From Fidelibacterota bacterium (GTDB lineage Bacteria; Fidelibacterota; Marinisomatia; Marinisomatales; J089), in the NCBI GenBank assembly GCA_003695105.1, contig RFIZ01000017.1:1-45060 (forward strand): a DNA stretch of 45,060 bases. The letters run 5' to 3'. The notes under the pieces are model-generated. The model saw nothing but the letters and a program-made list of their open reading frames with translations, made no database searches and was not told where the DNA came from. The position numbers and the translations under genes were made by a program. Shown one piece after another: positions 21,099 to 45,060 of this stretch; positions within the stretch are counted from its first letter, which is position 1; the number at the start of each line of letters is the position of its first letter.

Positions 21099-21263
21099 GA
21101 CGGCACCTCCTGATTGGGTGGTGAGTAAAATCGTGAAGGAAAATATACAGGAATACTACTATCAAAACCGGAGGAAGGAGTCAGGATTCCTTCACTGAAC
21201 CGGAAGAAATATACTATGATGAACTGCCCATCACCTACCCTCTTTTCGGGTACGGGTGGAAGC

Positions 21264-27761: not shown

Positions 27762-27782
27762 TCCCGTACTCCGGGAGGCGGG

Positions 27783-28832: not shown

Positions 28833-31800
28833 TTGATCACCGCAAATTTTCCAAGTTTCTCTTTCCCGGTCCGCCACGATTTCACATGGTAGAGGTACAT
28901 TCCCGCGGCGATCTCCAGGTTTTCCCGGGTCAGGAGGTCCCAATGAACCAGGCCGTTGTCGGGAGGATTGTCCACCTGAATTTCATCTACCAGCACACCG
29001 CTGACGGTAAAGATTTTGATCGTACATTGGGCCGGTATATGCGTAAAAATCAGACGCCGCCGCTGGTTGAGAGAGGCATTGGCCAGGGCGGGTTCCATGG
29101 CGTTGGTGGCAATGTAGGGATTGGGAACCACCTTGATCCGGTCCATTTCGTCGTTCAGAGAAGATTCATCGACGGAATCGGTGGCATGGACGGTGAAGCG
29201 GAGGGTGTCCGTCACCCAGAAGGGACGTTTGAAATCGACCTGGTATTGATCGCCCGGCCGGGGATAATTGAGCGTGTCGATATTGGTGAAATCGATGATG
29301 AAGGCTGTCCCGCCCCAGCGACCGTTCGTGGTCAGGGGACCCACCAGGACCCGGTCGATGAATCGATCATACACGCCATTGCGATTGACGTCGTGAACCA
29401 TGATATCCATGAGTTCGTAATTCCCGGACGAATCCACAAAGGACTGATTCTGTACGTAGAAGTCCACCGAGGCCCCCGGAAGCAGTTCCGTGTAACTCAA
29501 CCGGTGGTCGTTTTCATCCCGGACGTTGGACCGGTTGGTAATCTGACCGGTGTAGGCAGCCGGATCACTGGAAAAAATAATGGCATACCGCCAGGGCAGG
29601 AGGTTCGATTCGCGTACCGTGGGTGTCACATGGATATCACCGCTCCCGACAACCCAGCCGGAATGGGCATAATCGAAGATGGGCGTTTCCACCGGCAGGT
29701 CCAACTCCAGCCGGATGCCATCAAACACATCCGTGGCTACACCGTTCCGGTTGAGGGCATAATAATCGAGCGTGTCATCGTAGACTATATTTTCTCCCAC
29801 ATAGCGATCCCGGTCTTCGTGGTATACTACCGAGCTGTCCATTTCATCAAATACGGTGAAACTGTCATTGGTGTAGGACAGGCCGTGGGCGTAGTTCGAC
29901 AGGGTGGCCACCGTGTCCAGGCCGAAAGTCAGGCGGTAGCGGTGATTTGGTTTCAGGGAACCCCGGGCCAGAATTTCGGCCGTATAGGTCCCGCTTCCGA
30001 TCAGGTCCGGATTGTCTTCCGGAACGATTTCCGGCGGGATATAGCCGGCAGCCGGAGGATGGGGCACCACGATCGCCACGTTTTTCCCGTAGCCGATGAC
30101 ATTTTCATTCTCATCCAGTTCGATGACCACGTTGTTTTCGGACGGAGCAATGCCCGGTCCAATATCCGGTGCACCGTAGTCGTAGGCCACCACGGCATAG
30201 TAATAGGTGCGGCCGTTTTGCACCGACCGGTCGATGAAATGGTGTGTGATTCCGGTTTCGGTCCCCAGGTTGTAGCCCACCCCGTTGACCAGACCGAAGT
30301 CGGTGAATCCGAAGATGTCATCCTTTAAATCACACTGGTAGATGGGCAATTTATAGGTCGGGGTGCCATACAGATCCGTAATGATCTCCGGATCGGACAT
30401 TTTTTTATCCGTTGACCGGTAGACTTTATAGCCTTCGAAATCATTCACATTACCCACGAAAGGATCGCGGGTTTTGGTGTCGGCAATGTCATCCCAGGTG
30501 AGAATGACCTCACCGTCCCCTTCCGTGGCGGTCAGGGTCGGCATCCGCGGCGGCTGGGCGAAGCGGTAATCCTTTTCATAGATGACCTGCACGATTCGTT
30601 TCAGTTCGAACAGGGCCGGCGCGGTATGGTCCTCGGAATTCAGCCCCGGCAGTTGATCATAGGAATGCAGTTCCGACATGGATATCCGTTCCGTCTGCCC
30701 CTGATACAGGGGAAAGGGACCGGAGGCAAAGACTTCAATCAGGTTGGTGATACTGCCGGAGTAGTCTTCCAGCGAATCGATTCCGATCAATTCCCACATG
30801 GATTCATCCCCCCGGAACCAGTGTTGATCCGAACTGTGACTGGGGACGGCAAAGAGTCGGAAGGAAGTCAACCCCACCATGTCGGATTCGGACACGTCTG
30901 TCCAGGCAAAGTTGGGTTCACTGCCGACTCCTTCGACAAAATCCGGTTTGTGGTTCCCCTCACCCTCATCGGGCCCGGTGTAATTGATATCCCCCGGGGC
31001 AACCCCATCCAGACCGACGTCATCGCCGGCATATTCAGAAATCTGATAGATGCCATCTCCATTGATATCTTCCCCGTCTTCCCAGTCCTGATCCTCATCG
31101 GCATCCCAGTGCTCATGCAGGTCCTCTTCGGTCAACTTATAGACATCCAAAAATTGCTGCAGATCGGAATAGCCGTCGGTGGGGCCTACCAGAGTTTGGG
31201 CGACGTTATCCCGCTTCTCATCGGTAATTCCGTCCTCATCGTTATCTATTCCGTCGTAGGGCAACCCCGGACTTTCCAGGTAGGCAAAGCCCATGGTGCC
31301 GGGAGTCAATCCGGCGGCTCCCAGACCATTGACGTCCCATGAATAGGCCAGGTCGATCTGGGTGTCGAAAAAACCCAATTCATCATTGGCGCCGTCGCCG
31401 CCGATGGCATTGTCCACCCAGTAGCCAAAAGCTGCATCCCGGATATCGTAATCCGATACATTGGCGATGGTGTATTCCCAGAAGATGGCATCCCGGGCCT
31501 GGGGATTGTTCCACTGAAAACCGCGGGTCTCCACCCGGATACCCAGCCCCCCCCAGGGTTTGCCGCGCTGGATGGTGACATCGGGTTTTAAATCACCGAT
31601 ATATCGACCGGGACGTGGATAGTAGCGGACAAAATCTTCCGGTCCCAGATATTCCTGGTCCTGGGCGTCATTGACCACAAAATAGGTTTCCAGATCGGCA
31701 TACCTCACTCCCCGACCAAACCGGCCGTCCCATTCTCCGGGCCACTTTTTGGTGAATCCCGCCGCCGGCCAGCCCCCTACGGGCCAGGAATCGGGTTTGT

Positions 31801-32290
31801 TGCTCATGGCCGGATATTCCCCGTTTTCGTTGAAGTACCCGAATACGGGATAAAAGCCCCATTCCACGGTTCCGGTGGGATCCCGGTCCATTTCTTCCCG
31901 GTAACTGGTTTGGAGGTAGTAGAGGGTGTGGGTATTGGGATCGGTATAGATATCCAGCAAATCTGTGGTGGGGATCGTGTCCACCGTCGTGGCGTCCCCG
32001 TCGCCTTTGATATACACTTTGGCTCCCACCAGCAGGGCCACGCCGTCCAACATCTTGGTGCCTTCGTACGTGTTAGGCCAACGGGACACGTCTTCCCGGG
32101 GCCAGTCGGACAACTCGGTGGTATTCCGAAAATAGAGAAATACCCGGTTCCCGGTCATGTATCCTTCCCGTTCGGCGGCGATGTCACCGGCGGGGTCATC
32201 CGGACCTTCATACGGTCGTCCCTGACCCCAGAGCCCCGTCAGGAACAGGAGACCGGATAGCAATGCTGCAAAGGATGTGAGTTTCTTCAT
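28829..32290 (-). CDS. Large secreted protein with acidic DxDxDG Ca-binding-type repeats and a variant T9SS CTD; function unknown
   Basis: 1153 aa with signal peptide MKKLTSFAALLSGLLFLTGLWGQ. Central acidic block DGIDNDEDGITDEKRDN ... DADEDQDWEDGEDINGDGIYQ ... DDVGLDG (about nt 30910-31255). C-terminus VVPNPYIATN...GMYLYHVKS...KFAVIK. Starts 3 nt after the TonB-dependent transporter stop. Confidence 0.6.
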   Translation of the reverse strand: MKKLTSFAALLSGLLFLTGLWGQGRPYEGPDDPAGDIAAEREGYMTGNRVFLYFRNTTELSDWPREDVSRWPNTYEGTKMLDGVALLVGAKVYIKGDGDATTVDTIPTTDLLDIYTDPNTHTLYYLQTSYREEMDRDPTGTVEWGFYPVFGYFNENGEYPAMSNKPDSWPVGGWPAAGFTKKWPGEWDGRFGRGVRYADLETYFVVNDAQDQEYLGPEDFVRYYPRPGRYIGDLKPDVTIQRGKPWGGLGIRVETRGFQWNNPQARDAIFWEYTIANVSDYDIRDAAFGYWVDNAIGGDGANDELGFFDTQIDLAYSWDVNGLGAAGLTPGTMGFAYLESPGLPYDGIDNDEDGITDEKRDNVAQTLVGPTDGYSDLQQFLDVYKLTEEDLHEHWDADEDQDWEDGEDINGDGIYQISEYAGDDVGLDGVAPGDINYTGPDEGEGNHKPDFVEGVGSEPNFAWTDVSESDMVGLTSFRLFAVPSHSSDQHWFRGDESMWELIGIDSLEDYSGSITNLIEVFASGPFPLYQGQTERISMSELHSYDQLPGLNSEDHTAPALFELKRIVQVIYEKDYRFAQPPRMPTLTATEGDGEVILTWDDIADTKTRDPFVGNVNDFEGYKVYRSTDKKMSDPEIITDLYGTPTYKLPIYQCDLKDDIFGFTDFGLVNGVGYNLGTETGITHHFIDRSVQNGRTYYYAVVAYDYGAPDIGPGIAPSENNVVIELDENENVIGYGKNVAIVVPHPPAAGYIPPEIVPEDNPDLIGSGTYTAEILARGSLKPNHRYRLTFGLDTVATLSNYAHGLSYTNDSFTVFDEMDSSVVYHEDRDRYVGENIVYDDTLDYYALNRNGVATDVFDGIRLELDLPVETPIFDYAHSGWVVGSGDIHVTPTVRESNLLPWRYAIIFSSDPAAYTGQITNRSNVRDENDHRLSYTELLPGASVDFYVQNQSFVDSSGNYELMDIMVHDVNRNGVYDRFIDRVLVGPLTTNGRWGGTAFIIDFTNIDTLNYPRPGDQYQVDFKRPFWVTDTLRFTVHATDSVDESSLNDEMDRIKVVPNPYIATNAMEPALANASLNQRRRLIFTHIPAQCTIKIFTVSGVLVDEIQVDNPPDNGLVHWDLLTRENLEIAAGMYLYHVKSWRTGKEKLGKFAVIK

Positions 32291-32293
32291 GCG

Positions 32294-34972
32294 TTAAAAT
32301 TCCACTCCCACACTCAGTTTAATACTCCTTGGGGCGGAGTAGGCGGACGGATCGTGAATCCGGTCCTCATAGGTGTTGAAATTGCTGCGATGACCGGCCA
32401 GATCCGTGTCCTGAATGATGGCCGTATACGCCCTGCCGGTCTGACCGTTGACGTTGATTTCGTTTAAGCGGTCGAACAGGTTCCGTACCAGCAACTCAAA
32501 TTTCAGCCTGAAGTGACTGCCCAGGGTTAGTGCATAATGGGCGGTCATATCTACCGTATATCGGGTCGGGCGATAATCATTGTTGGGATACAGGTTGATC
32601 CGGCTGATGAGCCGTTCACCCAATGGCGTGTATGTATAGGGCATGCCCGAATTGTAATAGCCCGTAATGGAAACACCCCCGCGGCCCCGCTCATAGCTGA
32701 CCGTCGCATTGAAGGTATTCCGCTGGTCCCAGTTCAGCGGTATCAGACGATTCACCGGGTCCGTCTGGCTGCCTTCGCGATCAAAGGCCTCCCGGGGATA
32801 ATCCGCATTCCCGCGGGTGTACTGAAGCGTGTAATTCACAAAAATGGCCAGCGGACGCCGGGTGAAATCATATTTTACCTCCAGACCCCGTACATTGCCG
32901 TAATCCTTGTTGGTGTATAACCCGTACTCGATTTGATTGAAAGTGCTGATGATCTTCGTGCTCAACAGATCGTAAATATCCCGGTAGAACAACGAGACCT
33001 CCAGTCCCATTCCCCGGGACAGTTCCTGCCACAGACCGATTTCGTAGGAGACTGTTTTTTCGGCTTTGACCTGAGGATTGCCCATGACGGTGGAATAATC
33101 ATCCGGCCCGACCCGCAGGCTGTGATTCTGATACAGCGCGTAAAAAGGCGGCATCTGGAAAAAATGGCCGTAGCTGAAATGGAGCACAGCCGCATTCCCC
33201 AGCTGGTAGGCCAGACCGAATCGGGGCGACCACTGGAATTTGGGGTCGGCAGGGACCGGATGGGACATGGAATCGGGATTGTCGAATATTTGTTGATTGC
33301 CGGGATTTCGCCGTTGGGACGGATATGTGGCGGCCGGATCGAAATAATCGTACCGCAGCCCCAGATTGATCACCATATCGTCGAATTCCATCTTGTCCTG
33401 GATATACGCCGACTGTTCCACCGGTTTCACATGATAGATATCGGCGTAGATGGTGCTGTCCGGCAGGATGATCGGCTCGTAGAGGTCGAATTCGTTGGAG
33501 GTGCCATAATATTTATTGCGGATTTGGTGCCAGGTATTGGTGATGTCATGGTGGATTCCCAGATATCCCGCCTTCAAACTGTGGCGGGGATTGGCCTGCC
33601 AATTGAGGTCGAACTTCACCGTGGCATCCCGGGTCTCCCGGTAGCTGTGATCCTTGCTTTGCCCACCAGTCAGAAAACCCGGTCCATAGCTGTTGAAATA
33701 TTTATCGTGGACATACCGCGCATCCATGGGATCCTTGTATACATAGGTGCCGCCGTAGTTATAGGTCTGGGAAAATTTGAATTCGTAGAACAGGGCGTTG
33801 GACAGCATGTGATTGACCTGCACGGCCAGCATATGAGCATCCCGAACCGAATGGGGACGCCCGTTGGGATTGTACTTGTAAAAATGATCGTACCACCGCC
33901 AGATGTCGTTGTTGCGGGTATAGAGCAGGTTCCAGCGGAAATGTTTCCACAGATTGAAACTCAGCTTTCCCATCAGAGATTGATTCTGAGTCACGTTCAT
34001 GGGGACCAGGTTTCCGCTGCCATTATGTTCGGAAATCCAATCCAGGGAATCGGGAGAAGTGAAATCACTGTAATCATCGACCAGAAAGCGTTCAATACCA
34101 TTCAGATGTCCCTGATTGTCCTGCAACCGGGAATTGATAAAAAAGGTTATCTTGTCACCCCAAACCGGTCCGCTCAACTGAAACTTCACATCCGTATTCC
34201 GGTTGATATCCGGCTGATCAATTCCGATGAAAATATCTTTATGCGGTGTAAAATAATTCTCTACGGCACCGGAAACGGATCCGTGGAACTCCCGGGAACC
34301 GCTTTTGGTTACCTGATTCACAATGCCGCTCATGGCCCGGCCGTATTCAGCATTGAAGGTTCCGGTGATGACTTCCAGATCCTGGACGGCGTCCGCTTCC
34401 AGATCAACGGTGGACCCGGTACCGCCTACGACTTCATCCACCACCAGACCATCGATCATATAGGAAACTTCCGTGTTGCGACCGCCCCGGAAATGGCCTT
34501 CCACCACGCCCGCCTGCATCTGGATGATTTCACCGATATTTTCCACCGGCAGGACATCCATTTGATCCGCGGAGATATTCTTCGTGGTACCCGTCTGGTC
34601 TTTCTTTTGGGAAATGGCACTGGCCGTCACCACCACTTCCTGCCCTTCCAGAACGGTGGGCTCCAGTTCGGCTTTGAGATAGGCCGTCCGGTTGACGGAG
34701 ACTTTGATCCCTTCCATCCGCAGTTCGGTGTAGCCGATCATCTGGGCGATGACCGTATACGTCCCCGGGGCGACATTGAGGATGAAGAAGGAGCCGTTTT
34801 CGTCGGTGGCAGCCCCGATTCCCATGCCTTCCAGAAATACATTGACGCCCGGCAGGGGTTCCTGGGTATCCTTATCCACTACCGTACCGGCAATCTTGCC
34901 GGTGGTCTGTCCCGCCAGGGGTACCAGAACCAGGGCCAGGAGCAAACTAAAAAACGAGATTCTGTATTTCAT
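32294..34972 (-). CDS. TonB-dependent outer-membrane transporter with N-terminal carboxypeptidase-regulatory-like domain
   Basis: 892 aa. Signal peptide, then GKIAGTVVDKDTQEPLPGVNVFLEG...GSFFILNVAPGTYTV (CarboxypepD_reg). Plug region ISADQMDVLPVENIGEIIQMQAGVV. Beta-barrel ends in ...IKLSVGVEF with terminal Phe. Confidence 0.9.
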   Translation of the reverse strand: MKYRISFFSLLLALVLVPLAGQTTGKIAGTVVDKDTQEPLPGVNVFLEGMGIGAATDENGSFFILNVAPGTYTVIAQMIGYTELRMEGIKVSVNRTAYLKAELEPTVLEGQEVVVTASAISQKKDQTGTTKNISADQMDVLPVENIGEIIQMQAGVVEGHFRGGRNTEVSYMIDGLVVDEVVGGTGSTVDLEADAVQDLEVITGTFNAEYGRAMSGIVNQVTKSGSREFHGSVSGAVENYFTPHKDIFIGIDQPDINRNTDVKFQLSGPVWGDKITFFINSRLQDNQGHLNGIERFLVDDYSDFTSPDSLDWISEHNGSGNLVPMNVTQNQSLMGKLSFNLWKHFRWNLLYTRNNDIWRWYDHFYKYNPNGRPHSVRDAHMLAVQVNHMLSNALFYEFKFSQTYNYGGTYVYKDPMDARYVHDKYFNSYGPGFLTGGQSKDHSYRETRDATVKFDLNWQANPRHSLKAGYLGIHHDITNTWHQIRNKYYGTSNEFDLYEPIILPDSTIYADIYHVKPVEQSAYIQDKMEFDDMVINLGLRYDYFDPAATYPSQRRNPGNQQIFDNPDSMSHPVPADPKFQWSPRFGLAYQLGNAAVLHFSYGHFFQMPPFYALYQNHSLRVGPDDYSTVMGNPQVKAEKTVSYEIGLWQELSRGMGLEVSLFYRDIYDLLSTKIISTFNQIEYGLYTNKDYGNVRGLEVKYDFTRRPLAIFVNYTLQYTRGNADYPREAFDREGSQTDPVNRLIPLNWDQRNTFNATVSYERGRGGVSITGYYNSGMPYTYTPLGERLISRINLYPNNDYRPTRYTVDMTAHYALTLGSHFRLKFELLVRNLFDRLNEINVNGQTGRAYTAIIQDTDLAGHRSNFNTYEDRIHDPSAYSAPRSIKLSVGVEF

Positions 34973-34998
34973 GTGACTGTTGAGTAAAGCGTGATAAG

Positions 34999-35024
34999 GA
35001 GGAGGGAAGCCGCAGCTTCCCTCC
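34999..35024 (-). promoter_or_regulatory. Perfect 11-bp GC-rich stem with tetraloop between the CBM-protein stop and the TBDT start (intra-operon attenuator or RNA-stability element candidate)
   Basis: Plus strand AGGAGGGAAGC-CGCA-GCTTCCCTCCT, arms hand-checked as exact reverse complements. No U-tract follows on the minus-strand transcript. Confidence 0.4.
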
Positions 35025-35049
35025 TTCTCTACCTGATTAATCTGTCGGA

Positions 35050-37659
35050 TTATTTCATCAGTATCATCTTTTTCGTCTGGACGAAATCACCGGCGCGCAA
35101 CTGATAGAAATACACTCCGGAAGCTGCCTGGGAACCATTCCATTTCACGGTGTAGGTGCCCGCCTTCTGGACATGATTCACCAGTTGATCCACTTCCTGT
35201 CCCATCAGGTTGTAGATGGTGAGAGTGACCTCTCCCGCCCGGGGAACCACATACTCGATACTGGTGGTCGGGTTAAAGGGGTTCGGGTAGTTGTTCCGCA
35301 GGGCGTACTGTTGCGGCTGGAGCGTTTCATTGCCCGTGGAAAGAGCCACGTCAGTCGTATCTCCGATCCAGGTGTAGGCCCATTCTTCCGGCGTCTGCCA
35401 CTGATGGTCCGTGCTGAACGAGGAGAAACCGACATTTCCTTCCCAACCGGCGCCGTCGTTGTCATGGAAGTACAGGTCGATCGGAACCCGCATGCCATTC
35501 TGAGGATGGAAACGTGGATCACCTCCGGCGGCGGCAATGGCATCCAGGGGTACGCGCACTTCGAAGACGTAGTCCGGATTGAATCCTTCGAAGTAATAGT
35601 CGGCGGAATCCGGAGTGTAGAGGGCGTATCCACCCGGATTATCGAACTGGAAGACCTGTTCATTGGCATACATGATGTAGTCCGGTTCATCGCCCCGCAG
35701 GATGGAGGTGTGTTTGGGACCGCGCCAGTCATAGAGACCGATGAAGAGCTGGAAGGCATCCTGGTCCCACCAGTTTCCGGCGCCAAAGGAATAAACATTA
35801 TCCACAACATCTCCGGCCAGATAGAGATAGTCATCATCGATGGCCATAAATACCGTTCCGGTCAGGTCATTGTCATCATCCACCGATCCCACGGGAACAA
35901 ATCCGTTGGAAGGCGAGATGGTGAAGGGCATGATGCCGCTGCTGTACCATTCGGTCAAATCGCCATCGGCGGCAAAGGAAGCCGGAGGATTGAGGGAAAT
36001 GGTGGGAATGCCCCGGGCCGTATTGGTCACGGGAGAGGCCGAAACGCCCGGCTCACTCACATTGGCAAATTCATCGGCACAGGTCACGGCATAGTAGTAG
36101 GTGAGGTCGGTATCCACCAGTGGATAATTCAACCAGTGGATGACGGTCTGAATATCTTCACCCACACCCGATTCCACCAGTTCCACACCCGGCGCCGACA
36201 CATCGGTGATGGGAGACTGACTGGCATAGACATTATACGTCTCTCCCGATTCTCCGGGTACGTCCTGCCAGATCACCAGGTTGTAGTAGGTGCCTACCAC
36301 GCCGGACACACCCTGAGGCGGAGCCGGAGCTTCCACATCGATGGCCAGCGGCATGGTGGCAATTTCATCCAGATCGATCGTCTGGTTTACGGCCGCGGTA
36401 CTGGCAATCAGCATTTTAAAGAATTTCACCCGGGAAGAGTCCATTTCACCGGGACGCATGCCCGTGCCGTCCCAGCCGCCGCTGAAACGGTCAAAACTGG
36501 ACAGGGGAATTTTGACTTCTTTCCAGGTTCCGTCATAGCCCACTTCCGTTTCGGTCAGGGTGTAGGCGGCTTCGAATTCGGAATCGGGGGTGTCATCAGC
36601 ACCGTCGCCGTCATTATCCACAAAGCCGTCGTCATCCGGATCGGCGAGGACCAGTTTCAGATCGCCAATCCCGGCCGGGGCCTTGATCTTGAACTGGAGA
36701 CTGTCATGGGACCAGCTGTACCAGAGATTCTGGGGCGCATCCAGCGTGAACACCAGCCCGTCCCAGACGGCCCAGTCATTCGGGGGTGTATGCCAGCGAA
36801 GGGCATTGGTATTGGGCGTATAGCCGGCGCCTTCAACGATTTCATAACTGCCGCCGCCCCAGCCGGCCCAGAGGTCGACATTGGAAGGAATAGCCATACT
36901 GTTGAAAAACACCAGCGGTACCGAAGATCCCCCGGTGGCTTCCAGGTCATCCAAAACAATGGTTCCCTGGGAATAGTCCCCTTCACCGGCACCATTGATG
37001 GAGAATTCGATGGAAAAACCTTTGATCTTATCCTTGTCCAGTTGGCCATTGCCCTGTATCCCGGCCCAGCCGGTGTGATTGAACCCTTCGCCGCCCCAGT
37101 AATCGCCGGCCTCGAGGGGTATGGCGATCCGGTGCCAGCCGGGGGCATCATCCAGAATGTAATGGAAGGAATAGTAGTATTCGACTTCATTCACATCGTA
37201 GGTGGCATTTCCGTTGGGGGAATCGCTCACTTCCTGGAGATTGAAGCGTAAATGCGTGCGGGTCGGCAGGGATTGGGGAACGGCATTGTAGTACCAGAAA
37301 GAAATGGTGTCATAGGCCGACAGGTCATAGACACCATTGCTGTCCGGATTCCAGTGCTCCAGTTTGGAATAGCCGCCCCAACTTTCCGTGTTGTGCGCAC
37401 TCCAATCCAGTTGCATGGCTCCCGTACCTTCATGCACCGGGCTGGAGACATAGGTGGGTATCACCCAGCCGTAGGCTGAATCGGCATGATCGCTGGTATT
37501 GTAATGGGCGCCGAAAGTACTGACACAGCAATTCACTGAATCAAACCAGGCCCAGTAATTCGTATCTGCGGGAGCCGAATCGAAGGAATTCCAGACATAT
37601 TGGCTGTATCCAAGCGAGAGCATGAATACGGTAGCCAAGATGGGTAACCTTGATTTCAT
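35050..37659 (-). CDS. Multi-domain surface glycan-binding-type protein: two CBM-like beta-sandwich modules + FN3 + CBM9-like module + T9SS CTD
   Basis: 869 aa with a signal peptide. Trp/Tyr/Gly-rich beta-sandwich-like N-terminal repeats. FN3-like PAPPQGVSGV...YNVYAS...YYYAVTCADEFANVSEPG. CBM9-like GTVFMAIDDDYLYLAGDVVDN...WWDQDAFQLFIG...LYFHDNDG. CTD NNYPNPFNPTTSIEYVV...GVYFYQLRA. AAGGAGGAAG lies 5 nt upstream of the ATG. Confidence 0.6.
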   Translation of the reverse strand: MKSRLPILATVFMLSLGYSQYVWNSFDSAPADTNYWAWFDSVNCCVSTFGAHYNTSDHADSAYGWVIPTYVSSPVHEGTGAMQLDWSAHNTESWGGYSKLEHWNPDSNGVYDLSAYDTISFWYYNAVPQSLPTRTHLRFNLQEVSDSPNGNATYDVNEVEYYYSFHYILDDAPGWHRIAIPLEAGDYWGGEGFNHTGWAGIQGNGQLDKDKIKGFSIEFSINGAGEGDYSQGTIVLDDLEATGGSSVPLVFFNSMAIPSNVDLWAGWGGGSYEIVEGAGYTPNTNALRWHTPPNDWAVWDGLVFTLDAPQNLWYSWSHDSLQFKIKAPAGIGDLKLVLADPDDDGFVDNDGDGADDTPDSEFEAAYTLTETEVGYDGTWKEVKIPLSSFDRFSGGWDGTGMRPGEMDSSRVKFFKMLIASTAAVNQTIDLDEIATMPLAIDVEAPAPPQGVSGVVGTYYNLVIWQDVPGESGETYNVYASQSPITDVSAPGVELVESGVGEDIQTVIHWLNYPLVDTDLTYYYAVTCADEFANVSEPGVSASPVTNTARGIPTISLNPPASFAADGDLTEWYSSGIMPFTISPSNGFVPVGSVDDDNDLTGTVFMAIDDDYLYLAGDVVDNVYSFGAGNWWDQDAFQLFIGLYDWRGPKHTSILRGDEPDYIMYANEQVFQFDNPGGYALYTPDSADYYFEGFNPDYVFEVRVPLDAIAAAGGDPRFHPQNGMRVPIDLYFHDNDGAGWEGNVGFSSFSTDHQWQTPEEWAYTWIGDTTDVALSTGNETLQPQQYALRNNYPNPFNPTTSIEYVVPRAGEVTLTIYNLMGQEVDQLVNHVQKAGTYTVKWNGSQAASGVYFYQLRAGDFVQTKKMILMK

Positions 37660-37682
37660 GTCTTCCTCCTTACGTTAATCAA

Positions 37683-39308
37683 TCAGAAGAATCGGATCCA
37701 TAATCCGATAATGGTTGCGGCCAGGATGACCGAGGCCCAAATGTTTATTTTGGTCCACACGGGGGATTTTTCTCCCATTTTCACCGCCAGTTCGGACTGG
37801 AGATCCTGAGCGGTGGCAAAGGTGAGTCCGGCGATTTGATCGCGGTCCGGTTCTTCACTCATCAGACTGACGACCACCAAAACGATTGTGGACACGAGAA
37901 ACAGGAAGAAAGCAAAATGTAAAAAATTCATGGAAGCATAGCCAGTCATAAATCCGAGATCGACTCCGTTTTTCTTGGAAACGATTTCCAGGATCAGCCG
38001 CAATGCTCCCAGAACGGCGCCAATCACCAGGGAATAGATGGCTCCTTTGCCGTTCACCCGCTTCCAGAACACCCCCAGGATGAAGACCGCCGCGATGGGG
38101 GGACTGATATAAGCTTGAACGCTTTGGAGATAAACGAAGAGCTGGGAAGAAATACTGCTGATGAGCGGGACCCAAAGAATCCCGAAAATGACCAGAACCG
38201 TGGTGGCCAGGCGTCCCACCAGCACCAGTTCCCGTTCGGACGCCTGGGGTTTAAAATGTTTGTAAAAATCCATGGTGAACAGGGTCGAACTGCTGTTGAA
38301 ACAGCTGGCCAGGGAAGACATGAGCGCCGCCAGGAGCGATGCAATGACCATGCCCTTGATGCCGATCGGCAGCAAATGACTGGATACCAGTCGCGGGTAG
38401 GCTTCATCGCCTTTGATGTCCGGAAACATGGCCACCGCAATCAGACCGGGCAGCACCAAAATAAACACCGGCAGAATTTTCAAAAAGCCGGCGAATATGG
38501 CGCCCGACTGGGCATGATTGACATTTTTGGCGCTCAGCACCCGCTGAACAATGAACTGGTCGGTACACCAGTACCAGATGCCCAGGATCGGCGCACCGAA
38601 GATGATGCCCGTCCAGGGAAAGTCCGGATGGTTGGCCGGTTTGAACATACTGAAGAAATCAGCCGGTAATTTGGCCTCCAATCCGCTGAAACCGCCCACT
38701 TCCCGCAACCCCAGGGTGGTCAACAATACGGCACCGAAAATCAGGACCACGGTTTGAATCAACTCGGTATAGATCACGGCGCTGAGTCCGCCGGCAATGG
38801 TATAGAGCCCGGTAATGATCACCAGAATGATGGCCGAGGTGATGATATCCCATCCCAGGATGGTGTGCAGGAGGAGTCCCCCGGCCAGGAGAGTGACAGA
38901 GATTTTGGTCAACACATAGGCCACGATGGAAACGGAGGTAAGGTACATCCGGCTGGAGGCATTGTAGCGTCGTTCCAGAAATTCGGGCATGGTAAACACA
39001 CCCGACTTCAGGTAAAAAGGCACAAACACCCAGGCCAGAATCATGACGATGAAAGCCGCCAGCCATTCAAAATGCCCTACGGCCAGTCCACTGGTTGCCC
39101 CGGAGCCGGCCAACCCGATGAAATGTTCGGAGGAGATGTTGGATGCAAACAGGGAAGCGCCGATCGCCACCCACCCCACATTCCGACCGGCCAGAAAGTA
39201 TTCCGTACTGGTATTTCCCCGTTTGGCGAAATAAAAGCCAATGCCCAGCACCAACAGGAAATAGGCCACAATCACCACACCATCTAAAGGGGCTATGTTT
39301 TGAAACAT
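37683..39308 (-). CDS. Sodium:solute symporter (SSS family, SGLT-type sugar transporter)
   Basis: 541 aa, multi-TM. N-terminus GVVIVAYFLLVLGIGFYFAKRGNTSTEYFLAGRNVGWVAIGASLFASNISSEHFIGLAGSG is typical of SGLT/SSS transporters. AAGGAG lies 8 nt upstream of the ATG. Confidence 0.9.
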   Translation of the reverse strand: MFQNIAPLDGVVIVAYFLLVLGIGFYFAKRGNTSTEYFLAGRNVGWVAIGASLFASNISSEHFIGLAGSGATSGLAVGHFEWLAAFIVMILAWVFVPFYLKSGVFTMPEFLERRYNASSRMYLTSVSIVAYVLTKISVTLLAGGLLLHTILGWDIITSAIILVIITGLYTIAGGLSAVIYTELIQTVVLIFGAVLLTTLGLREVGGFSGLEAKLPADFFSMFKPANHPDFPWTGIIFGAPILGIWYWCTDQFIVQRVLSAKNVNHAQSGAIFAGFLKILPVFILVLPGLIAVAMFPDIKGDEAYPRLVSSHLLPIGIKGMVIASLLAALMSSLASCFNSSSTLFTMDFYKHFKPQASERELVLVGRLATTVLVIFGILWVPLISSISSQLFVYLQSVQAYISPPIAAVFILGVFWKRVNGKGAIYSLVIGAVLGALRLILEIVSKKNGVDLGFMTGYASMNFLHFAFFLFLVSTIVLVVVSLMSEEPDRDQIAGLTFATAQDLQSELAVKMGEKSPVWTKINIWASVILAATIIGLWIRFF

Positions 39309-39354
39309 GAATGCTCTCCTTCTTACCTCTGCTCGTACTTCATCTCCCCGTCAG

Positions 39355-39371
39355 AAGCAAACATCAAGCCA
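39355..39371 (-). promoter_or_regulatory. Sigma-54 (-24/-12) promoter for the SGLT-to-GH5 operon
   Basis: Minus-strand sequence TGGCTTGATGTTTGCTT, i.e. TGGC-N7-TTGC with exact consensus spacing (TGGCAC-N5-TTGC). The GC of the -12 element is 49 nt upstream of the ATG at 39308. A sigma-54 enhancer-binding protein is encoded next door. Confidence 0.75.
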
Positions 39372-39426
39372 AAAGGAGTTTGGTCTCCGATCTGATGCTG
39401 CTCTCTCCCTTTTCCCGACAAGAACC

Positions 39427-39456
39427 ACCGGCGGGAAGCAGGCGGAGGCCGCCGGT
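39427..39456. repeat. Inverted repeat ACCGGCGG-N14-CCGCCGGT (terminator of the regulatory operon or protein-binding site)
   Basis: 8-bp perfect arms, hand-checked. An alternative inner hairpin GGCGG-AGG-CCGCC (39441-39453) competes for the right arm. Lies between the response-regulator stop and the sigma-54 promoter. Confidence 0.3.
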
Positions 39457-39471
39457 CCTTTCAGGCGGAAT

Positions 39472-39486
39472 TTATCATTTTGATAA
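39472..39486. promoter_or_regulatory. Candidate upstream activator site: palindrome TTATCA-TTT-TGATAA
   Basis: Perfect 6+6 palindrome about 110 nt upstream of the -24 GG of the 39355-39371 promoter. The same half-sites and spacing recur at 43752-43766. Confidence 0.6.
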
Positions 39487-39508
39487 TAACCGTTATAGAA
39501 ACGATAAG

Positions 39509-40957
39509 CTACTTCAGGGACAAATCTTTACACATGCGATGAAAATTGGAGGGAGCCAGGTTCAGTTTCTGAGCTGCTTCTGCGTCCGTCCGGCACTGGG
39601 AACGGACGTAGCGAAAATACGCCCGCCTGAATTTTCGGTCGGCTTCCTTCCAGGGCAGGATCTCCGCCGATTTCAGCAGTCCTCCGAAATCCGGATCAGG
39701 GGTTGATTTGGTCAGGGTGAGCACCCGCCGGACATCCTCTTCCCGAATGGTATCCGGAGCGATGATGATCAGGCGCTGGGCGATGTTTTTCAATTGACGC
39801 ACATTGCCGGGCCAGTCGTGTGTACTCAAGAGATCCAGCGCGCTCTGGCCCACTCGCGGCGGAATACGATTTTCTTCCCCGGCGAAATGATGGAGAAAAT
39901 AGGTCAACAACTCCGGAATGTCCTCCCGGTGTTCCCGGAGAGGAGGAGTCTTGATTTGCAAAATGTTCAGCCGATAAAACAGGTCTTCCCGGAACTGACC
40001 TTTGGCTACCCGTTTCCGAATATTCCGGTTGGTGGCGGCCAAAACCCGCAGGGAGACACGATAGGATTTGTTCCGGCCGATTTTATCGATTTCACCGGTT
40101 TCCAGAACCCGGAGCAGTTTGGCCTGGGCCGGAAGGGGTAGTTCGCAGATTTCATCCAGAAAAATTGTTCCGCCGTTGGCCTGTTCAAACAATCCTTTCT
40201 TGCCATCCCGGGCGCCGGTGAACGATCCCCGGACGAAGCCGAACAGTTCGCTCTCGATCAAATCCTTGGGAATGGCAGCACAGTTCACCGGAACGAAATT
40301 TTCATACTTGCGGGGGCTGTTGTAATGGAGGTGCAAGGCCACCAGTTCCTTTCCGGTTCCGCTTTCCCCGGTGATCAGCACATTGGCGGAGGCATGAGCG
40401 TACCGGGCGATGGCTTCCCGCAGATCGATCATCACGGACGATTGTCCCAGGAGGGGACGATCCTGGAGGATGGTCACAATCTTCCGATCGAATTTTCCCT
40501 GGGAGCGCCGCAGGCGTAATTCGGATTGACGCTGATTGTAGGCGTTCAGAATCAGCAGATTGAAATCGGTGGGTTGATAAATATAGTCTTCGATGTCGGC
40601 CGGATATTTGGTCCCGAACCAGTAGGCCCCCGTCTGAATCAGTTCGTTGGCAAACTGGATATTGCTTTTGTTGATCGTGCGTTTGGTGATGATAATGATC
40701 TTCAGGGTGGGATCGATGGCATGGATTTCCCGGATCAGGGCTTCCCCATACAATCCTCCGGAAATCTGGTAGTCCATTATGATGACATCACAGGCATGGT
40801 TCCGCTCCCGGAGAAATTCCAGGGCATCTTTCCCGTTGGAGACCACCGTTTCGACGGTGATGGTATCCCGGAACGGTTCTACGGTCCGCAAGATGCGTTG
40901 CACATCGTATTCTTCATCCTCGATGACCAAAACTTTAATTTCCATCACGTTCCTCAT
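39509..40957 (-). CDS. Sigma-54-dependent response regulator (NtrC family: receiver + AAA+ + Fis-type HTH)
   Basis: Receiver IKVLVIEDEE...DVIIMDYQISG. Walker A ITGESGTGKE, sigma-54 contact loop GSFTGA (GAFTGA variant), Walker B IFLDEI, WPGNVRQL. C-terminal HTH AEAAQKLNLAPSNFHRMCKDL. The start could be the second Met (40945). Confidence 0.92.
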   Translation of the reverse strand: MRNVMEIKVLVIEDEEYDVQRILRTVEPFRDTITVETVVSNGKDALEFLRERNHACDVIIMDYQISGGLYGEALIREIHAIDPTLKIIIITKRTINKSNIQFANELIQTGAYWFGTKYPADIEDYIYQPTDFNLLILNAYNQRQSELRLRRSQGKFDRKIVTILQDRPLLGQSSVMIDLREAIARYAHASANVLITGESGTGKELVALHLHYNSPRKYENFVPVNCAAIPKDLIESELFGFVRGSFTGARDGKKGLFEQANGGTIFLDEICELPLPAQAKLLRVLETGEIDKIGRNKSYRVSLRVLAATNRNIRKRVAKGQFREDLFYRLNILQIKTPPLREHREDIPELLTYFLHHFAGEENRIPPRVGQSALDLLSTHDWPGNVRQLKNIAQRLIIIAPDTIREEDVRRVLTLTKSTPDPDFGGLLKSAEILPWKEADRKFRRAYFRYVRSQCRTDAEAAQKLNLAPSNFHRMCKDLSLK

Positions 40958-42413
40958 AGGTTACATCGGTCAGGGTGATATGGAATCGGGCACCTCCCTC
41001 CGATAAATTTTCCGCTTCCAGGCGCCATCCGCAGCGTCGGGAATACTCATAGGCAATGTAACAACCGTACCCGGCCGTTTGCTTGTCCGCTTTGGTGGTT
41101 TCGTGTTCCTGAAACACCACCTGCCGCCCCCCCTTCCATTGGAGCAGATACTCCGGAAATCCCCGGCCGTCATCACGGATGAAGATCTCTCCCTGACCGG
41201 TGTCGGACTGGAAATGGGTCTGAATCACGATTCGCAGGGTACGGTCCGGATTGTGGTCGATACTGTTTTGAATCAAGGGTTCCAGAATACCCCAGATCAC
41301 ATATTCGTTCACCGGCACGATGAGCGGTTTTTCCGTCAGGTCCAAATCGATGGACAATTCCCGATTGGGCCGGGACACCCGGAGAAAAATCGCCTCCACC
41401 AGAAAGCGGATCACTTCATTGACGTCCGTGTGAAACAAGGGGCCGCGAATGATTTCCATGGGAGGTTCCACCGATTTCATATCGTAAATCACCCGGGCAA
41501 TGAAATTGGCATATTTCGTGATCCGGTATCGGATCTTGTCCAGATTGTCCGCCCTAAGCAGGCGCAGATCTTCCTTCACGAAACCCATGATTTTTTCGGC
41601 TTTGTGGTGGGCGTGATAGATCCGTTGGGTGAAATGCGCTTCTTTCTGGTGTTCGATCTGGGTTCGCAATTGGCGTTCCCGTTCCCGAAAGAGGGCTTCC
41701 TGGGCCCGGTCCCGTTCCTGAACCGAATAGTTGGAGATGTACAGCATGGCCAGAAGTCCCATCAGGACCAAGGCGGAAAAAAGGCCGGCCACTTCGTCAT
41801 AGGAAAAGTTGATCTGCCGGGTGATTTCACTCATGTCCGGCGCAATCCGCATATAAATTGCGCCCCGGAATTCCCCCTGGGGTACGAAGGGGACCAGTAC
41901 ATGAAAAGTAAATTCCTTTTCCAGCAGACTGTACAGGCGCTCTTCGGCTTTGACCCGATCGTAATACAATCGGTACAGGCGCAGGGCATCGGGATGGGCC
42001 CCGTGGGCCGATTCGTCATATTGTCCCCGGAAAAAATATTCGTATACAGCCTGCCCGTCGTCGAACTGGAGCACCCGACCCCTGGCCGGCATGAGAATCA
42101 CAATCTCCTCCACGTTCTTCTGGAGGGATTGTTGACTCAACATGATATTGAACTTCTGAATGACGGCTCGTTCTTCCACGGAACTGGCCGGGGGCTGGGC
42201 CAGACTCTGTTCCAGTAACAGTTCGATTGAGGTGGCCGTCAGATCAGCAATCCGTTCCACCGAATCCCGACGATATACATCCAGCGTCTGGGAAAGGAGA
42301 TTGGAGGTGGAAGTGGAATGAATGAAAGAAATAAAGATCTGGGAAAACACCAGTACGATGAACAATATCATCAGATGTTTGGTTTCGAAACGGAACGGGG
42401 GCCTGCGGGTCAC
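40935..42413 (-). CDS. Sensor histidine kinase with a periplasmic/extracytoplasmic sensor domain between two TM helices
   Basis: TM1 HLMILFIVLVFSQIFISFI, an approximately 170-aa extracytoplasmic region, then TM2 LFSALVLMGLLAMLYISNY. His-rich dimerisation region RIYHAHHKAEKIMGF. HATPase_c motifs EPLIQNSIDHN, IRDDGRGF, GYGCYIAYEY. GTG start at 42413 overlaps the SBP stop (GTGA). Confidence 0.8.
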   Translation of the reverse strand: MTRRPPFRFETKHLMILFIVLVFSQIFISFIHSTSTSNLLSQTLDVYRRDSVERIADLTATSIELLLEQSLAQPPASSVEERAVIQKFNIMLSQQSLQKNVEEIVILMPARGRVLQFDDGQAVYEYFFRGQYDESAHGAHPDALRLYRLYYDRVKAEERLYSLLEKEFTFHVLVPFVPQGEFRGAIYMRIAPDMSEITRQINFSYDEVAGLFSALVLMGLLAMLYISNYSVQERDRAQEALFRERERQLRTQIEHQKEAHFTQRIYHAHHKAEKIMGFVKEDLRLLRADNLDKIRYRITKYANFIARVIYDMKSVEPPMEIIRGPLFHTDVNEVIRFLVEAIFLRVSRPNRELSIDLDLTEKPLIVPVNEYVIWGILEPLIQNSIDHNPDRTLRIVIQTHFQSDTGQGEIFIRDDGRGFPEYLLQWKGGRQVVFQEHETTKADKQTAGYGCYIAYEYSRRCGWRLEAENLSEGGARFHITLTDVTYEERDGN

Positions 42414-43741
42414 GGCTGCCGTTCTCCCAGCAGGCGCCGGATTTCTTGTTCCATGGCCGACAGGGTGGAATCCACGTCTGCATTCCGACGGATGGTTTCA
42501 TTCAGGGCTTCTGACAGGACATCAGAAATCCGGGTGTAATTGACATGGGCGGGGCGATGAATCCCCTGGCGTAACAGTTGTTTGAGAAAGGCAATCCGGT
42601 CCGGATGAGAGAGACCGGCCTCCGGTTCGTACAATTCCGTCCGGACCGGTAAATAGTGGCCCGCTTCATAGAGAATCTGCTGAGAGTTCAGGGACAGCAG
42701 GTAACGAATGAAGGTAATGGCTTCCTCCTTGTGTTCGGAGAACCGGGAAACCATCAGGTTCCAGCCACCAAACACCGACGCCGGAGCCTCTCCGGCAAAG
42801 TGAGGCAGGGGCGCCAGACCCAGCCGGTTTACCTTACGGGCGGCGGAACCCAGGTAAGAAGTGTCCTGGGTCATACTGGGCCAACCCCGGATCAGGGGAA
42901 GATCGTGTTGCAATCCATAGAGATAACTCTCATTTTCATTAAAATGGGTCACTTCTTCCGGCACGGCGTGGTAGCGATGAACCAGATCCACCAGTAACTG
43001 ACAGGCGGCTTCCGCTCTGGGATCGGTGAGACGAAAGGCCCGGGAGGTGATGAGGTCTCCGCCGGCGGCTCCCATGACTTCCAGATAGTTACAGATCAAC
43101 CCTTCATAACCCGCCGCCTGCAGGGATAGCACCGGTTGTCCGGGATAGTATTTTCGCTGAAAATCAAGTAACTCCTGCCAGGTCAGGGACCGTTGAATTT
43201 TGCGCTCCCATTCGGCCCCGTCAGGCAGGGCTGAAATCAAATCCTTCCGATAGAACAGTACCCCGATATCGAGGTAGAGCGGGAGAGCCACCAGATCGCC
43301 TTCGTAGTAGCACGTTTCCAGGCCGTACCCTACCACGTTCCGTAATGTATCCGGAGGGAAATAAGGTTCCAGGCGTTCCCCCCAGCGGGCAAAGCGGGAC
43401 ACCCAGATCTGATCGACTGCAAAGACATCAATCTGGCTGTTTCCACTCCGGAGAGAGCGGGCCAGCAACTCCTTCCGTTCATTGGTGGTGAACCGGGTAA
43501 ACGGGAGATCGATCGGGACCACTTCGATCCGGCCGGCGTAGTCCCGGTTGAACCGGTCGATGATTTCCTGATGAGCGGGGGAAATATTGTCGGCGTAATA
43601 GATCCGCACCTGGCGGCGGTCCGATCGCAGGGCGGTCAAACGCTGGGGCAGGAGATTGATGCCAAAGATGATGACGATCGTCACGCCGATGACGGCAATA
43701 ATCCACAGGATCGCCGACCGGGACAGGGCTTGTCTGCTCAT
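42410..43741 (-). CDS. Membrane-anchored extracellular solute-binding protein (family 1 sugar-binding type) with no cognate ABC permease/ATPase; probable co-sensor
   Basis: 443 aa. N-terminal TM anchor AILWIIAVIGVTIVIIFGINLL, then VRIYYADNISPAHQEIIDRFNRDY...IDVFAVDQIWVSRFARWG, typical of sugar SBPs. It is the first gene of the SBP-HK-RR operon. Confidence 0.75.
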   Translation of the reverse strand: MSRQALSRSAILWIIAVIGVTIVIIFGINLLPQRLTALRSDRRQVRIYYADNISPAHQEIIDRFNRDYAGRIEVVPIDLPFTRFTTNERKELLARSLRSGNSQIDVFAVDQIWVSRFARWGERLEPYFPPDTLRNVVGYGLETCYYEGDLVALPLYLDIGVLFYRKDLISALPDGAEWERKIQRSLTWQELLDFQRKYYPGQPVLSLQAAGYEGLICNYLEVMGAAGGDLITSRAFRLTDPRAEAACQLLVDLVHRYHAVPEEVTHFNENESYLYGLQHDLPLIRGWPSMTQDTSYLGSAARKVNRLGLAPLPHFAGEAPASVFGGWNLMVSRFSEHKEEAITFIRYLLSLNSQQILYEAGHYLPVRTELYEPEAGLSHPDRIAFLKQLLRQGIHRPAHVNYTRISDVLSEALNETIRRNADVDSTLSAMEQEIRRLLGERQP

Positions 43742-43751
43742 GAACGGTCTT

Positions 43752-43766
43752 TTATCAATTTGATAA
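43752..43766. promoter_or_regulatory. Candidate upstream activator site: palindrome TTATCA-ATT-TGATAA
   Basis: Perfect 6+6 palindrome about 105 nt upstream of the -24 GG of the 43862-43877 promoter. It lies only 11 nt upstream of the divergent SBP ATG. Confidence 0.6.
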
Positions 43767-43861
43767 TCTTCCTCTCATTCCACGGGATAATTTAGGAGAC
43801 AAAGGCCATATCGGGTTATGAATTCTCGTCGTAGTAAGCCTGGCGGGGACCCGGCTCTGGT

Positions 43862-43877
43862 TTGGCATAGTCCTTGC
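43862..43877 (+). promoter_or_regulatory. Sigma-54 (-24/-12) promoter for the GH3 gene
   Basis: TGGCATAGTCCTTGCC, i.e. TGGCAT-N5-TTGC, a near-perfect consensus with exact spacing. The -12 GC is 55 nt upstream of the ATG at 43931. Confidence 0.8.
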
Positions 43878-43930
43878 CCCGGTCTGTTTTTGAAATCTCT
43901 CAATTGCAGTGTGAAAGAAAGGCGCTTTTT

Positions 43931-45060
43931 ATGATTCACCGAACGCTTGTGTGGAGCCTGTCACTGGCCTGTCTGTTCAATGGCTGCCAGGAACCCGATC
44001 ATTCTCTGGGATCGAATCCGGACATCGAACATAAAGTTCAGTCCCTCTTGTCCCGCATGACGCTGGCGGAAAAGATCGGGCAAATGACCCAGGTGAACAA
44101 AGATTACCTCCAGGATATTTCCGACATCAAAACGTATGCGCTGGGATCGATCCTCAGCGGGGGCGGAGCCGTACCCGCCGTAAACGACCCGGAACACTGG
44201 GCCGACATGGTGGACAGTTTTCAGGAACAGGCCCTGGCCACCCGGCTGCAGATACCCCTCATCTATGGCATCGACGCCGTCCACGGGCACAACAACGTGG
44301 TGGGAGCAACCATCTTTCCCCATAACATCGGTCTGGGCTGTGCCAACGATCCCGATTTAGTGCGACAGGTCGCCCGGGCCACGGCCGAAGAAGTGGCAGC
44401 CACGGGAATCCACTGGACATTCAGTCCCTGCATTGCCGTTCCCCGGGATGAACGCTGGGGTCGTCACTACGAAGGGTTTTCCGAATCGCCGGAGCGGGTA
44501 AAAGCACTGGGAGCCGCCGCCGTGGAAGGCTACCAGGGTCCTTCCCTGGAGGAAGCCACCTCCATCCTGGCGTGCGCCAAGCATTACGTGGGTGACGGCG
44601 GCGTGGTCTGGGGAACCGGACTCAACGGCAAGATCGACCGGGGCGATACCCGTCTGGACGAAAACGGGATTCGCCGACTGCATCTGCCGGGATATGTGTC
44701 CGCCATCCAGTCCGGTGTCGGGTCGATCATGGCTTCCTACAATTCCATCCAGGGCCAGAAAATGCATGGCAACCGGCATTACCTCACAGACATCCTGAAA
44801 GGGGAACTGGGTTTTGAGGGTTTTGTGGTATCCGATTGGGCGGGAATCGACGAAATCCCGGGTGATTACCGGAGCGATATCAAGACCGCCATCAATGCCG
44901 GGATCGACATGGTGATGGTGCCCGAACATTATCAGGAATTCATCCAGAACCTCACCGATCTGGTCCAGACGGGAGAAGTCCCCCTGGAACGCATCGATGA
45001 CGCCGTCACCCGTATTCTCCGGATCAAATATCTGCTGGGTCTGTTCGACCATCCTTACAC
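43931..45060 (+). CDS. Glycoside hydrolase family 3 beta-glucosidase / exo-beta-glucanase lipoprotein (3' end truncated by the window edge)
   Basis: Not in the ORF track (no stop in the window). My translation gives MIHRTLVWSLSLACLFNGC (lipobox) ...MTLAEKIGQMTQV...GSILSGGG...YGIDAVHGHNNV...TIFPHNIGLG...KHYVGDGG...GFEGFVVSDWAG (nucleophile Asp). The minus-strand ORFs 43961-44323 and 44357-45052 are antisense artefacts. Confidence 0.9.
   Translation, partial: MIHRTLVWSLSLACLFNGCQEPDHSLGSNPDIEHKVQSLLSRMTLAEKIGQMTQVNKDYLQDISDIKTYALGSILSGGGAVPAVNDPEHWADMVDSFQEQALATRLQIPLIYGIDAVHGHNNVVGATIFPHNIGLGCANDPDLVRQVARATAEEVAATGIHWTFSPCIAVPRDERWGRHYEGFSESPERVKALGAAAVEGYQGPSLEEATSILACAKHYVGDGGVVWGTGLNGKIDRGDTRLDENGIRRLHLPGYVSAIQSGVGSIMASYNSIQGQKMHGNRHYLTDILKGELGFEGFVVSDWAGIDEIPGDYRSDIKTAINAGIDMVMVPEHYQEFIQNLTDLVQTGEVPLERIDDAVTRILRIKYLLGLFDHPY

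Follow-up and report, generated by a model that had tools for sequence, protein, structure and literature searches.

The contig RFIZ01000017.1 of an uncultured Fidelibacterota bacterium, a stretch of 45,060 nucleotides referred to here in its entirety as the window, probably carries a compact sigma-54 regulon formed by two promoters and by the activator encoded between them. The genes of a solute-binding protein (SBP), a histidine kinase (HK) and a response regulator (RR) of the NtrC type are flanked by two -24/-12 elements that face outward: P_ssf, directed to a string of genes headed by an SSF symporter gene, and P_gh3, directed to a beta-glucosidase-type gene of family GH3. According to our estimate, there is a probability of about 85% that these elements are genuine sigma-54 promoters on which the adjacent activator would act through the palindrome TTATCA-N3-TGATAA, found upstream of each. 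A compact regulon under a local regulator had already been proposed in an initial annotation of this DNA, and it is now supported by the ranks of the two sites in the genome, the presence of rpoN, the domains of the activator, the palindrome, and conservation across phyla. The window is contig C268 of our numbering, the largest of a metagenome-assembled genome (MAG) of 2.03 Mb, which comprises 306 contigs, is 81% complete and has a G+C content of 56%. Gene identities were taken from Pfam domain matches, and gene order in relatives was obtained by tblastn with the proteins of the window. The coordinates of the features are collected in Table 1.

Table 1. Promoters, palindromes and genes discussed in the text (positions in the window; UAS, upstream activator sequence).
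Feature	Position	Strand	Details
P_ssf, putative sigma-54 promoter	39357..39371	-	TGGCTTGATGTTTGC; -24 GG 39370-39369, -12 GC 39358-39357
P_gh3, putative sigma-54 promoter	43863..43877	+	TGGCATAGTCCTTGC; -24 GG 43864-43865, -12 GC 43876-43877
UAS-1, perfect palindrome TTATCA-N3-TGATAA	39472..39486	.	One of two exact copies in the genome
UAS-2, perfect palindrome TTATCA-N3-TGATAA	43752..43766	.	Second exact copy in the genome
Possible weak second activator site	39493..39507	-	TTATCGtttCTATAA with 3 mismatches; lies upstream of UAS-1, the two starts being 21 bp apart
RR, NtrC-type response regulator/sigma-54 activator	39509..40957	-	Pfam Response_reg, Sigma54_activat, AAA_lid_14
HK, histidine kinase	40935..42413	-	Pfam HATPase_c
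SBP, membrane-anchored family-1 solute-binding protein	42410..43741	-	Pfam SBP_bac_1, SBP_bac_8; hydrophobic N-terminal anchor
Gene string presumably driven by P_ssf	21264..39308	-	Pfam; one strand, gaps <=77 nt
GH3 beta-glucosidase-type gene	43931..45058	+	Pfam Glyco_hydro_3; runs off the contig end

The Two Probable Sigma-54 Promoters

Promoters recognized by RpoN are characterized by GG and GC doublets that are 10 nucleotides apart, in a context similar to TGGCAC-N5-TTGCW. Both P_ssf and P_gh3 present the GG-N10-GC spacing, as the initial annotation had noticed, and share a TGGC-N7-TTGC core. The minus-strand site had been correctly located at 39371-39357, with its final C 49 nt ahead of the symporter ATG (A at 39308). 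The plus-strand site had been placed one nucleotide too early, at 43862-43876 and 55 nt from the start codon of GH3; it occupies 43863-43877, and its final C is 54 nt ahead of the ATG at 43931. From these positions, transcription is predicted to start near 39345 for P_ssf and near 43889 for P_gh3. The former promoter is downstream of the regulator gene and co-directional with it, the latter is divergent from the SBP gene, and together they flank the sole sigma-54 activator gene of the contig. The claim that they bracket the genes for SBP, HK and RR is upheld by the Pfam identities of the three products.

A scan of the assembly with a generic sigma-54 matrix of 17 columns, which had been proposed as a check, places both sites among the best of about 4 million genome positions: P_ssf scores 17.1 bits (rank 1) and P_gh3 15.5 bits (rank 9). 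When chance is calculated from the exact score distribution, the probabilities per position are 4.6e-7 and 2.2e-6, respectively, and those per 200-nt oriented promoter window are 9e-5 and 4e-4; for both scores together, each in its own oriented window, the joint probability is about 4e-8. In addition, intergenic DNA accounts for seven of the ten top matches of the genome, where 1.1 would be expected (binomial p = 2e-5).

The mere number of motifs is of no use as evidence. The window contains three TGGC-N7-TTGC cores against 1.34 expected, a number reached by 16 of 100 shuffled sequences, which is not significant; it is the placement of the sites that carries the case. The third copy, TGGCGAACCAGTTGC, is located at 20042-20056 on the minus strand, within an open reading frame of the BcrAD type and without any palindrome, and is taken as a chance match. 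The same applies to another sigma-54-like match, AGGGCATGGTCATTGCA, found at 38340-38356 on the minus strand inside the symporter gene, which occupies rank 16 in the genome and also lacks a palindrome. Elsewhere in the assembly, two near-identical sigma-54-like sites, TTGGCACGGCT(T/C)TTGAA, with GA at -12, are present at positions 1070-1086 of contig C296 and 3167-3183 of contig C301. The C296 copy lies just 3′ of a partial activator gene, an arrangement of activator followed by promoter that is also seen in the window.

It might be argued that P_ssf and P_gh3 are themselves chance matches, and that the genes are read from housekeeping-sigma promoters that escaped recognition or by transcription running on from the regulatory operon (read-through). 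The non-significant count in the window and a total of genome matches at the chance level are compatible with this idea, and read-through is conceivable given that no terminator was predicted between the RR gene and the symporter gene. Nonetheless, it is difficult to reconcile with the joint probability of the two scores and with their ranks. Moreover, the sites are conserved in relatives amid diverged spacers, the motif is recovered de novo (see below), and no sigma-70-type promoter was found in the intergenic region of P_ssf (39250-39600 scanned) or in that of P_gh3 (43650-43990 scanned). An origin by chance is thus extremely improbable.

The Palindrome as a Putative Enhancer

Upstream activator sequences of sigma-54 promoters are typically found at about 70-150 bp from the promoter. 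Measured from the center of the palindrome to the -24 GG, UAS-1 precedes P_ssf by 109 bp and UAS-2 precedes P_gh3 by 105 bp. With respect to the regulatory genes, UAS-1 is situated 23 nt past the RR stop codon, and UAS-2 precedes the SBP start codon by only 10 nt. The 2.03-Mb assembly has two copies of the exact 15-bp palindrome, against 0.044 expected from base composition. Because these are the only two copies in the genome and each is found upstream of a promoter, the palindrome is likely to be the binding site of the activator. Upstream of UAS-1 there is another sequence, TTATCGtttCTATAA, which might be a degenerate copy of the site, although its role as an activator site is uncertain. A search across the assembly for degenerate palindromes (<=3 mismatches) paired with sigma-54 matches gave only noise beyond the two sites; judging from the assembled sequence, the regulon would consist of these two promoters.

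The DNA between UAS-1 and P_ssf also contains an inverted repeat (39427-39456) whose perfect 8-bp arms, ACCGGCGG/CCGCCGGT, enclose a loop of 14 nt. It was considered as a terminator and discarded: the terminator scan missed it, and its RNA fold is no better than those of shuffled sequences (z = 0.49).

Regulatory Genes and RpoN

The RR protein combines the receiver and AAA+ domains that would be expected of a sigma-54 activator of the NtrC type. Its receiver domain matches Response_reg with 43.8 bits (cut-off 30.2) and contains the motif DVIIMD with the phospho-acceptor Asp; the central domain matches Sigma54_activat with 224 bits and presents a Walker A motif (GESGTGKE), a Walker B motif (IFLDE), and the GSFTGA loop for sigma-54 contact that the initial annotation had pointed out. 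The C-terminus, AEAAQKLNLAPSNFHRMCKDLSLK, fits by eye the Fis-like pattern AAxxLG…RKLKxLG and is conserved in orthologues. Its recognition helix, PxN[YF][YH]RMCK[ED]L, is kept among orthologues and is unlike those of the four other full-length activators of the genome.

The three regulatory genes overlap or abut one another. The SBP is the presumed ligand sensor, and no gene for an ABC permease or ATPase is found beside it, its neighbors being the SSF symporter and GH3 genes. This is the layout of SBP-dependent three-component sensors, in which the gene of a binding protein without an ABC partner adjoins those of a kinase and a regulator. In the HK, Pfam detects neither a HisKA nor a sensor domain, so the parts of the protein devoted to dimerization and phosphotransfer, as well as the extracytoplasmic part, are atypical. 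As for the operon itself, no sigma-70 consensus and no Bacteroidetes-type TAnnTTTG box were found in its promoter region, and no sigma-54 site faces the SBP gene (best score 8.8 bits).

A full-length rpoN gene is present in the genome, a point that had been singled out for checking (contig C177, 6459-7853). Its product has the three expected domains, i.e., activator-interacting, core-binding and DNA-binding, and the RpoN box ARRTVAKYR. Each of the five close relatives with the locus has the gene as well. In a relative of the same genus, rpoN is found on the same contig as the SBP/HK/RR locus, at a distance of only about 9 kb (G002:C2, 11867-12343 versus 21228-22529).

The genome encodes about seven true sigma-54 activators, and activators of this class can act from a distance. 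Accordingly, one may consider that the promoters are real but respond to another of these proteins, the adjacent RR being in charge of something else. Two observations make such an arrangement very unlikely: promoters and palindromes flank this particular activator gene in dozens of genomes whose intergenic DNA is otherwise unrelated, and the recognition helices of the other full-length activators differ, as noted above. The adjacent RR is therefore retained as the probable activator of both promoters.

Conservation in Related Bacteria

Relatives of RR with 47-59% identity are encoded in MAGs labelled as Ignavibacteriota (Melioribacter roseus included), Calditrichota, Neomarinimicrobiota, and "Bacteroidetes," and the SBP is encoded in five genomes that belong to the genus or order of this bacterium. 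Synteny of the three regulatory genes extends to about 70 loci of Ignavibacteriota (among them M. roseus MAGs), Calditrichota and Neomarinimicrobiota. The order that recurs in them is: GH3 or GH5 divergent from SBP-HK-RR, then in some cases GH5/GH16, followed by the SSF symporter, a CBM9 protein, a TonB-dependent transporter, the protein of 1153 amino acids found in the window, and a PorV-like protein.

In about 50 loci across phyla, palindromes bracket the SBP-HK-RR operon, one just past the RR stop codon and the other just before the SBP start codon (7-17 nt in relatives). In AT-rich genomes the half-sites vary to TTATTA/TAATAA, and the palindrome is often present as a tandem pair with members 20-23 bp apart. 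Alignment of the spacers fails in the ten closest loci, and yet the palindrome and TGGC-N7-TTG(C/T) are retained; the consensus reads nTGGCATAnTnCTTGC ahead of GH3 and nTGGCTTAnTnTTTGT past the RR gene. The sequence TGGCATAnTnCTTGC is kept before GH3 in all seven close relatives that have a divergent GH3 gene. In the regulator-side promoter, nine of the ten close loci have TGGCTTnnTnTTTGT, with T for C at -12, the copy of the window being the canonical exception.

The motif was also recovered by a Gibbs search of 81 segments anchored on tandem palindromes, with 120 nt on each side and no prior for sigma-54. The result, TTGGCAYAATTTTTG, has sigma-54 spacing, with G at -25/-24 (frequencies 0.89/0.93), T at -14 (0.95), and G at -13 (0.98). 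In the same 81 segments, the offsets between the proximal palindrome and the -24 element cluster at about 57, 68 and 79-80 nt, in steps of approximately 11 bp or one helical turn. Phased offsets of this kind imply a dependence on the face of the helix, as would be expected if an enhancer has to face its promoter.

In a complete Calditrichales chromosome of 4.7 Mb the exact palindrome is found three times: two copies are at the locus, and the third is 3.1 Mb away (G061:C1, around 4,090,591), in a divergent region next to a GH9 gene whose product is 52% identical to the GH9 protein of the window. This outlying copy suggests a dispersed member of the regulon. A 3.6-Mb genome has a single exact copy, at the locus. 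The reversed pattern, used as a control, gave no match.

The data on relatives bear as well on the possibility that the promoters are real but the palindrome belongs to another factor, for instance a Fur-like or other dimeric repressor, with the activator binding elsewhere. The half-sites TGATAA and TTATCA resemble the hexamers of Fur boxes, TonB-dependent transporters are often controlled by Fur, and the helix-turn-helix of RR is not recognized by Pfam, its binding to the palindrome being a prediction. On the contrary, a position 60-110 bp upstream, without overlap with the promoter and with a phasing of about 11 bp, is the geometry of an enhancer and not that of a repressor. A Fur regulon would comprise many sites, against no more than two exact copies in this genome; the order of the half-sites is everted with respect to the 7-1-7 box of Fur; the palindrome brackets SBP-HK-RR in the roughly 50 loci mentioned above; and the recognition helix of RR is co-conserved with it. 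A site for another factor is consequently quite unlikely, and the binding of RR to the palindrome is the explanation adopted in what follows.

It is important to note that several observations weigh against the proposed regulon. The number of genome matches with at least 15.5 bits (nine) equals the nine expected by chance, and only their placement is non-random. The matrix was built from the published consensus, YTGGCACGrNNNTTGCW, and not from a curated file. Pfam HTH_8 gives no match in RR, even at E <= 1. Over the 81 sites of relatives, the base at -12 is C in a fraction of 0.22, T in 0.37 and A in 0.31, and G is found at -13 in 0.98. The T or A at -12 is atypical for RpoN promoters and could be either a peculiarity of the lineage or a warning; the sites of the window are canonical. 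The tandem sites 20-23 bp apart that are the rule in relatives are replaced in the window by single strong palindromes, and its spacings of 105 and 109 bp exceed the phased 59/70/81-bp series of more distant relatives and are out of step with it. Finally, the completeness of 81% makes the size of the regulon a lower bound.

Presumed Target Genes

The string of genes presumably driven by P_ssf starts with the SSF symporter (37683-39308, minus strand) and continues, in this order, with: a CBM9 protein with the C-terminal domain (CTD) of the type IX secretion system (T9SS), a TonB-dependent transporter of the CarboxypepD_reg type, the 1153-amino-acid protein, a PorV-like barrel, a GH9 protein, a protein of 488 amino acids, a GH16 protein, and a GH5-CBM6 protein. 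The glycosidases of the string carry the CTD (GH9-CTD, GH16-CTD, and GH5-CBM6-CTD). The 1153-amino-acid product, whose gene follows that of the transporter, has no match to the SusD family or to any other Pfam family. The 18-kb string is inferred to be an operon from its same-strand genes with only short gaps between them, and the numbers of internal promoters and terminators predicted within it are those of shuffled sequence.

On the opposite side, the initial annotation had described the target of P_gh3 as a periplasmic beta-glucosidase. Its membership of family GH3 is confirmed by the Pfam match, and the location is loosely worded, since the N-terminus of the protein (…LFNGC) resembles a lipoprotein signal.

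Proposed Mechanism

The circuit would operate as follows. The membrane-anchored SBP would capture a product of beta-glucan degradation, such as cellobiose, laminaribiose or a short oligomer, and signal to the HK, which in turn would phosphorylate the receiver domain of RR. By analogy with other members of the family, RR dimers would bind the palindrome about 105-109 bp upstream of each promoter and assemble the AAA+ ring; DNA looping would then bring the ring to the closed complex of RpoN-polymerase, which would be opened by means of ATP hydrolysis and the GSFTGA loop. The leftward output would be the string of the symporter, the CBM protein, the TonB-dependent transporter, the PorV-like protein, and the GH9, GH16 and GH5 enzymes, and the rightward output the GH3 lipoprotein. 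More speculatively, RR may damp or tune its own operon through UAS-2, because this site is only 10 nt from the SBP start codon.

Comparison with Known Systems

The closest architecture is that of AioX-AioS-AioR, which responds to arsenite in Agrobacterium and Rhizobium NT-26 and has in common with the locus of the window a binding protein, a kinase and an RpoN-dependent activator. AioR is an activator of the NtrC type that depends on RpoN and drives an adjacent sigma-54 promoter. The differences are as follows: the ligand is arsenite, the binding protein belongs to the phosphonate-binding family (and not to sugar family 1), an oxidase takes the place of the transporter/glycosidase locus as output, the hosts are proteobacteria, and the operator is unrelated. 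In that system, the periplasmic binding protein AioX stimulates the sensor kinase AioS (PMC8050422).

From a biological point of view, the most similar case is CuaD-CuaS-CuaR of Ruminiclostridium cellulolyticum, with which the logic is shared: a beta-glucan product leads to uptake and catabolism. CuaDSR differs in its output, an ABC transporter, in its Gram-positive host, and in the absence of a TonB-dependent transporter and of T9SS cargo. To our knowledge, sigma-54 is not involved in the function of CuaR. The sugar-binding protein encoded beside this two-component system senses cellobiose and induces the genes for the uptake of cellodextrins (PMC10384115).

The CBP-ChiS system shares with the proposed circuit a kinase gated by a binding protein and placed over a polysaccharide regulon. 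As far as we know, ChiS is a one-protein hybrid of sensor and DNA binder that does not depend on sigma-54, and CBP also serves an ABC transporter. In Vibrio, this periplasmic oligosaccharide-binding protein gates the membrane kinase of a polysaccharide-degradation regulon (PMC8050422).

DctB-DctD and NtrB-NtrC share the activator and the layout with upstream sites, but they lack a co-encoded binding protein and differ in the operator sequence and in the genes regulated. In these classical systems, an activator with receiver, AAA+ and helix-turn-helix domains acts from palindromic sites, situated about 100 bp upstream, on the -24/-12 promoter of an operon for transport or catabolism.

The regulators of polysaccharide utilization loci (PULs) of Bacteroidetes, i.e., SusR, hybrid two-component systems, and extracytoplasmic function (ECF) sigma/anti-sigma factors, have in common with the locus described here the control by an oligosaccharide of a glycan locus with a TonB-dependent transporter. 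Here, however, the sensor is split into three proteins and the output passes through RpoN instead of the housekeeping or an ECF sigma factor. The locus is not a canonical PUL: it has no SusC/SusD-like pair, and its regulator is a separate NtrC-type activator with its kinase, not a hybrid two-component system, SusR or an ECF factor. The statement of the initial annotation that this control differs from the known classes of PUL regulators is upheld to the extent that a non-exhaustive search of the literature yielded no account of TonB-dependent glycan loci under the control of sigma-54, nor any discussion in the Melioribacter or Caldithrix genome papers of how these loci are regulated.

Concluding Remarks

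The design of this circuit is an extension of classical sigma-54 control by two- or three-component systems, and not a new principle. The same non-exhaustive search yielded no paper describing the circuit, which recurs in several related phyla. It is conceivable, though we advance it only tentatively, that the triad of SBP, HK and sigma-54 activator, together with the TTATCA-N3-TGATAA enhancer and helically phased promoters, could be the principal class of regulators for SusD-less, T9SS-linked beta-glucan utilization loci across the non-Bacteroidia phyla of the Fibrobacteres-Chlorobi-Bacteroidetes (FCB) group (Ignavibacteriota, Calditrichota, Marinimicrobia, and allies), where Bacteroidia use SusR, hybrid two-component systems and ECF sigma factors. 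In addition, the frequent lack of C at -12 would point to a relaxed or altered recognition of the -12 element by RpoN in these bacteria.

If the proposed regulon is correct, a whole glycan switch, comprising sensor, kinase, activator, 15-bp enhancer, two promoters and targets, would be readable from sequence, and this would apply to a large group of polysaccharide degraders that are mostly uncultured; cultured carriers of the same locus also exist, such as M. roseus. The combination of the palindrome and a -24/-12 element would serve as a search key for beta-glucan regulons in metagenomes, and a class of regulators based on sigma-54 would be added to those of TonB-dependent glycan loci.

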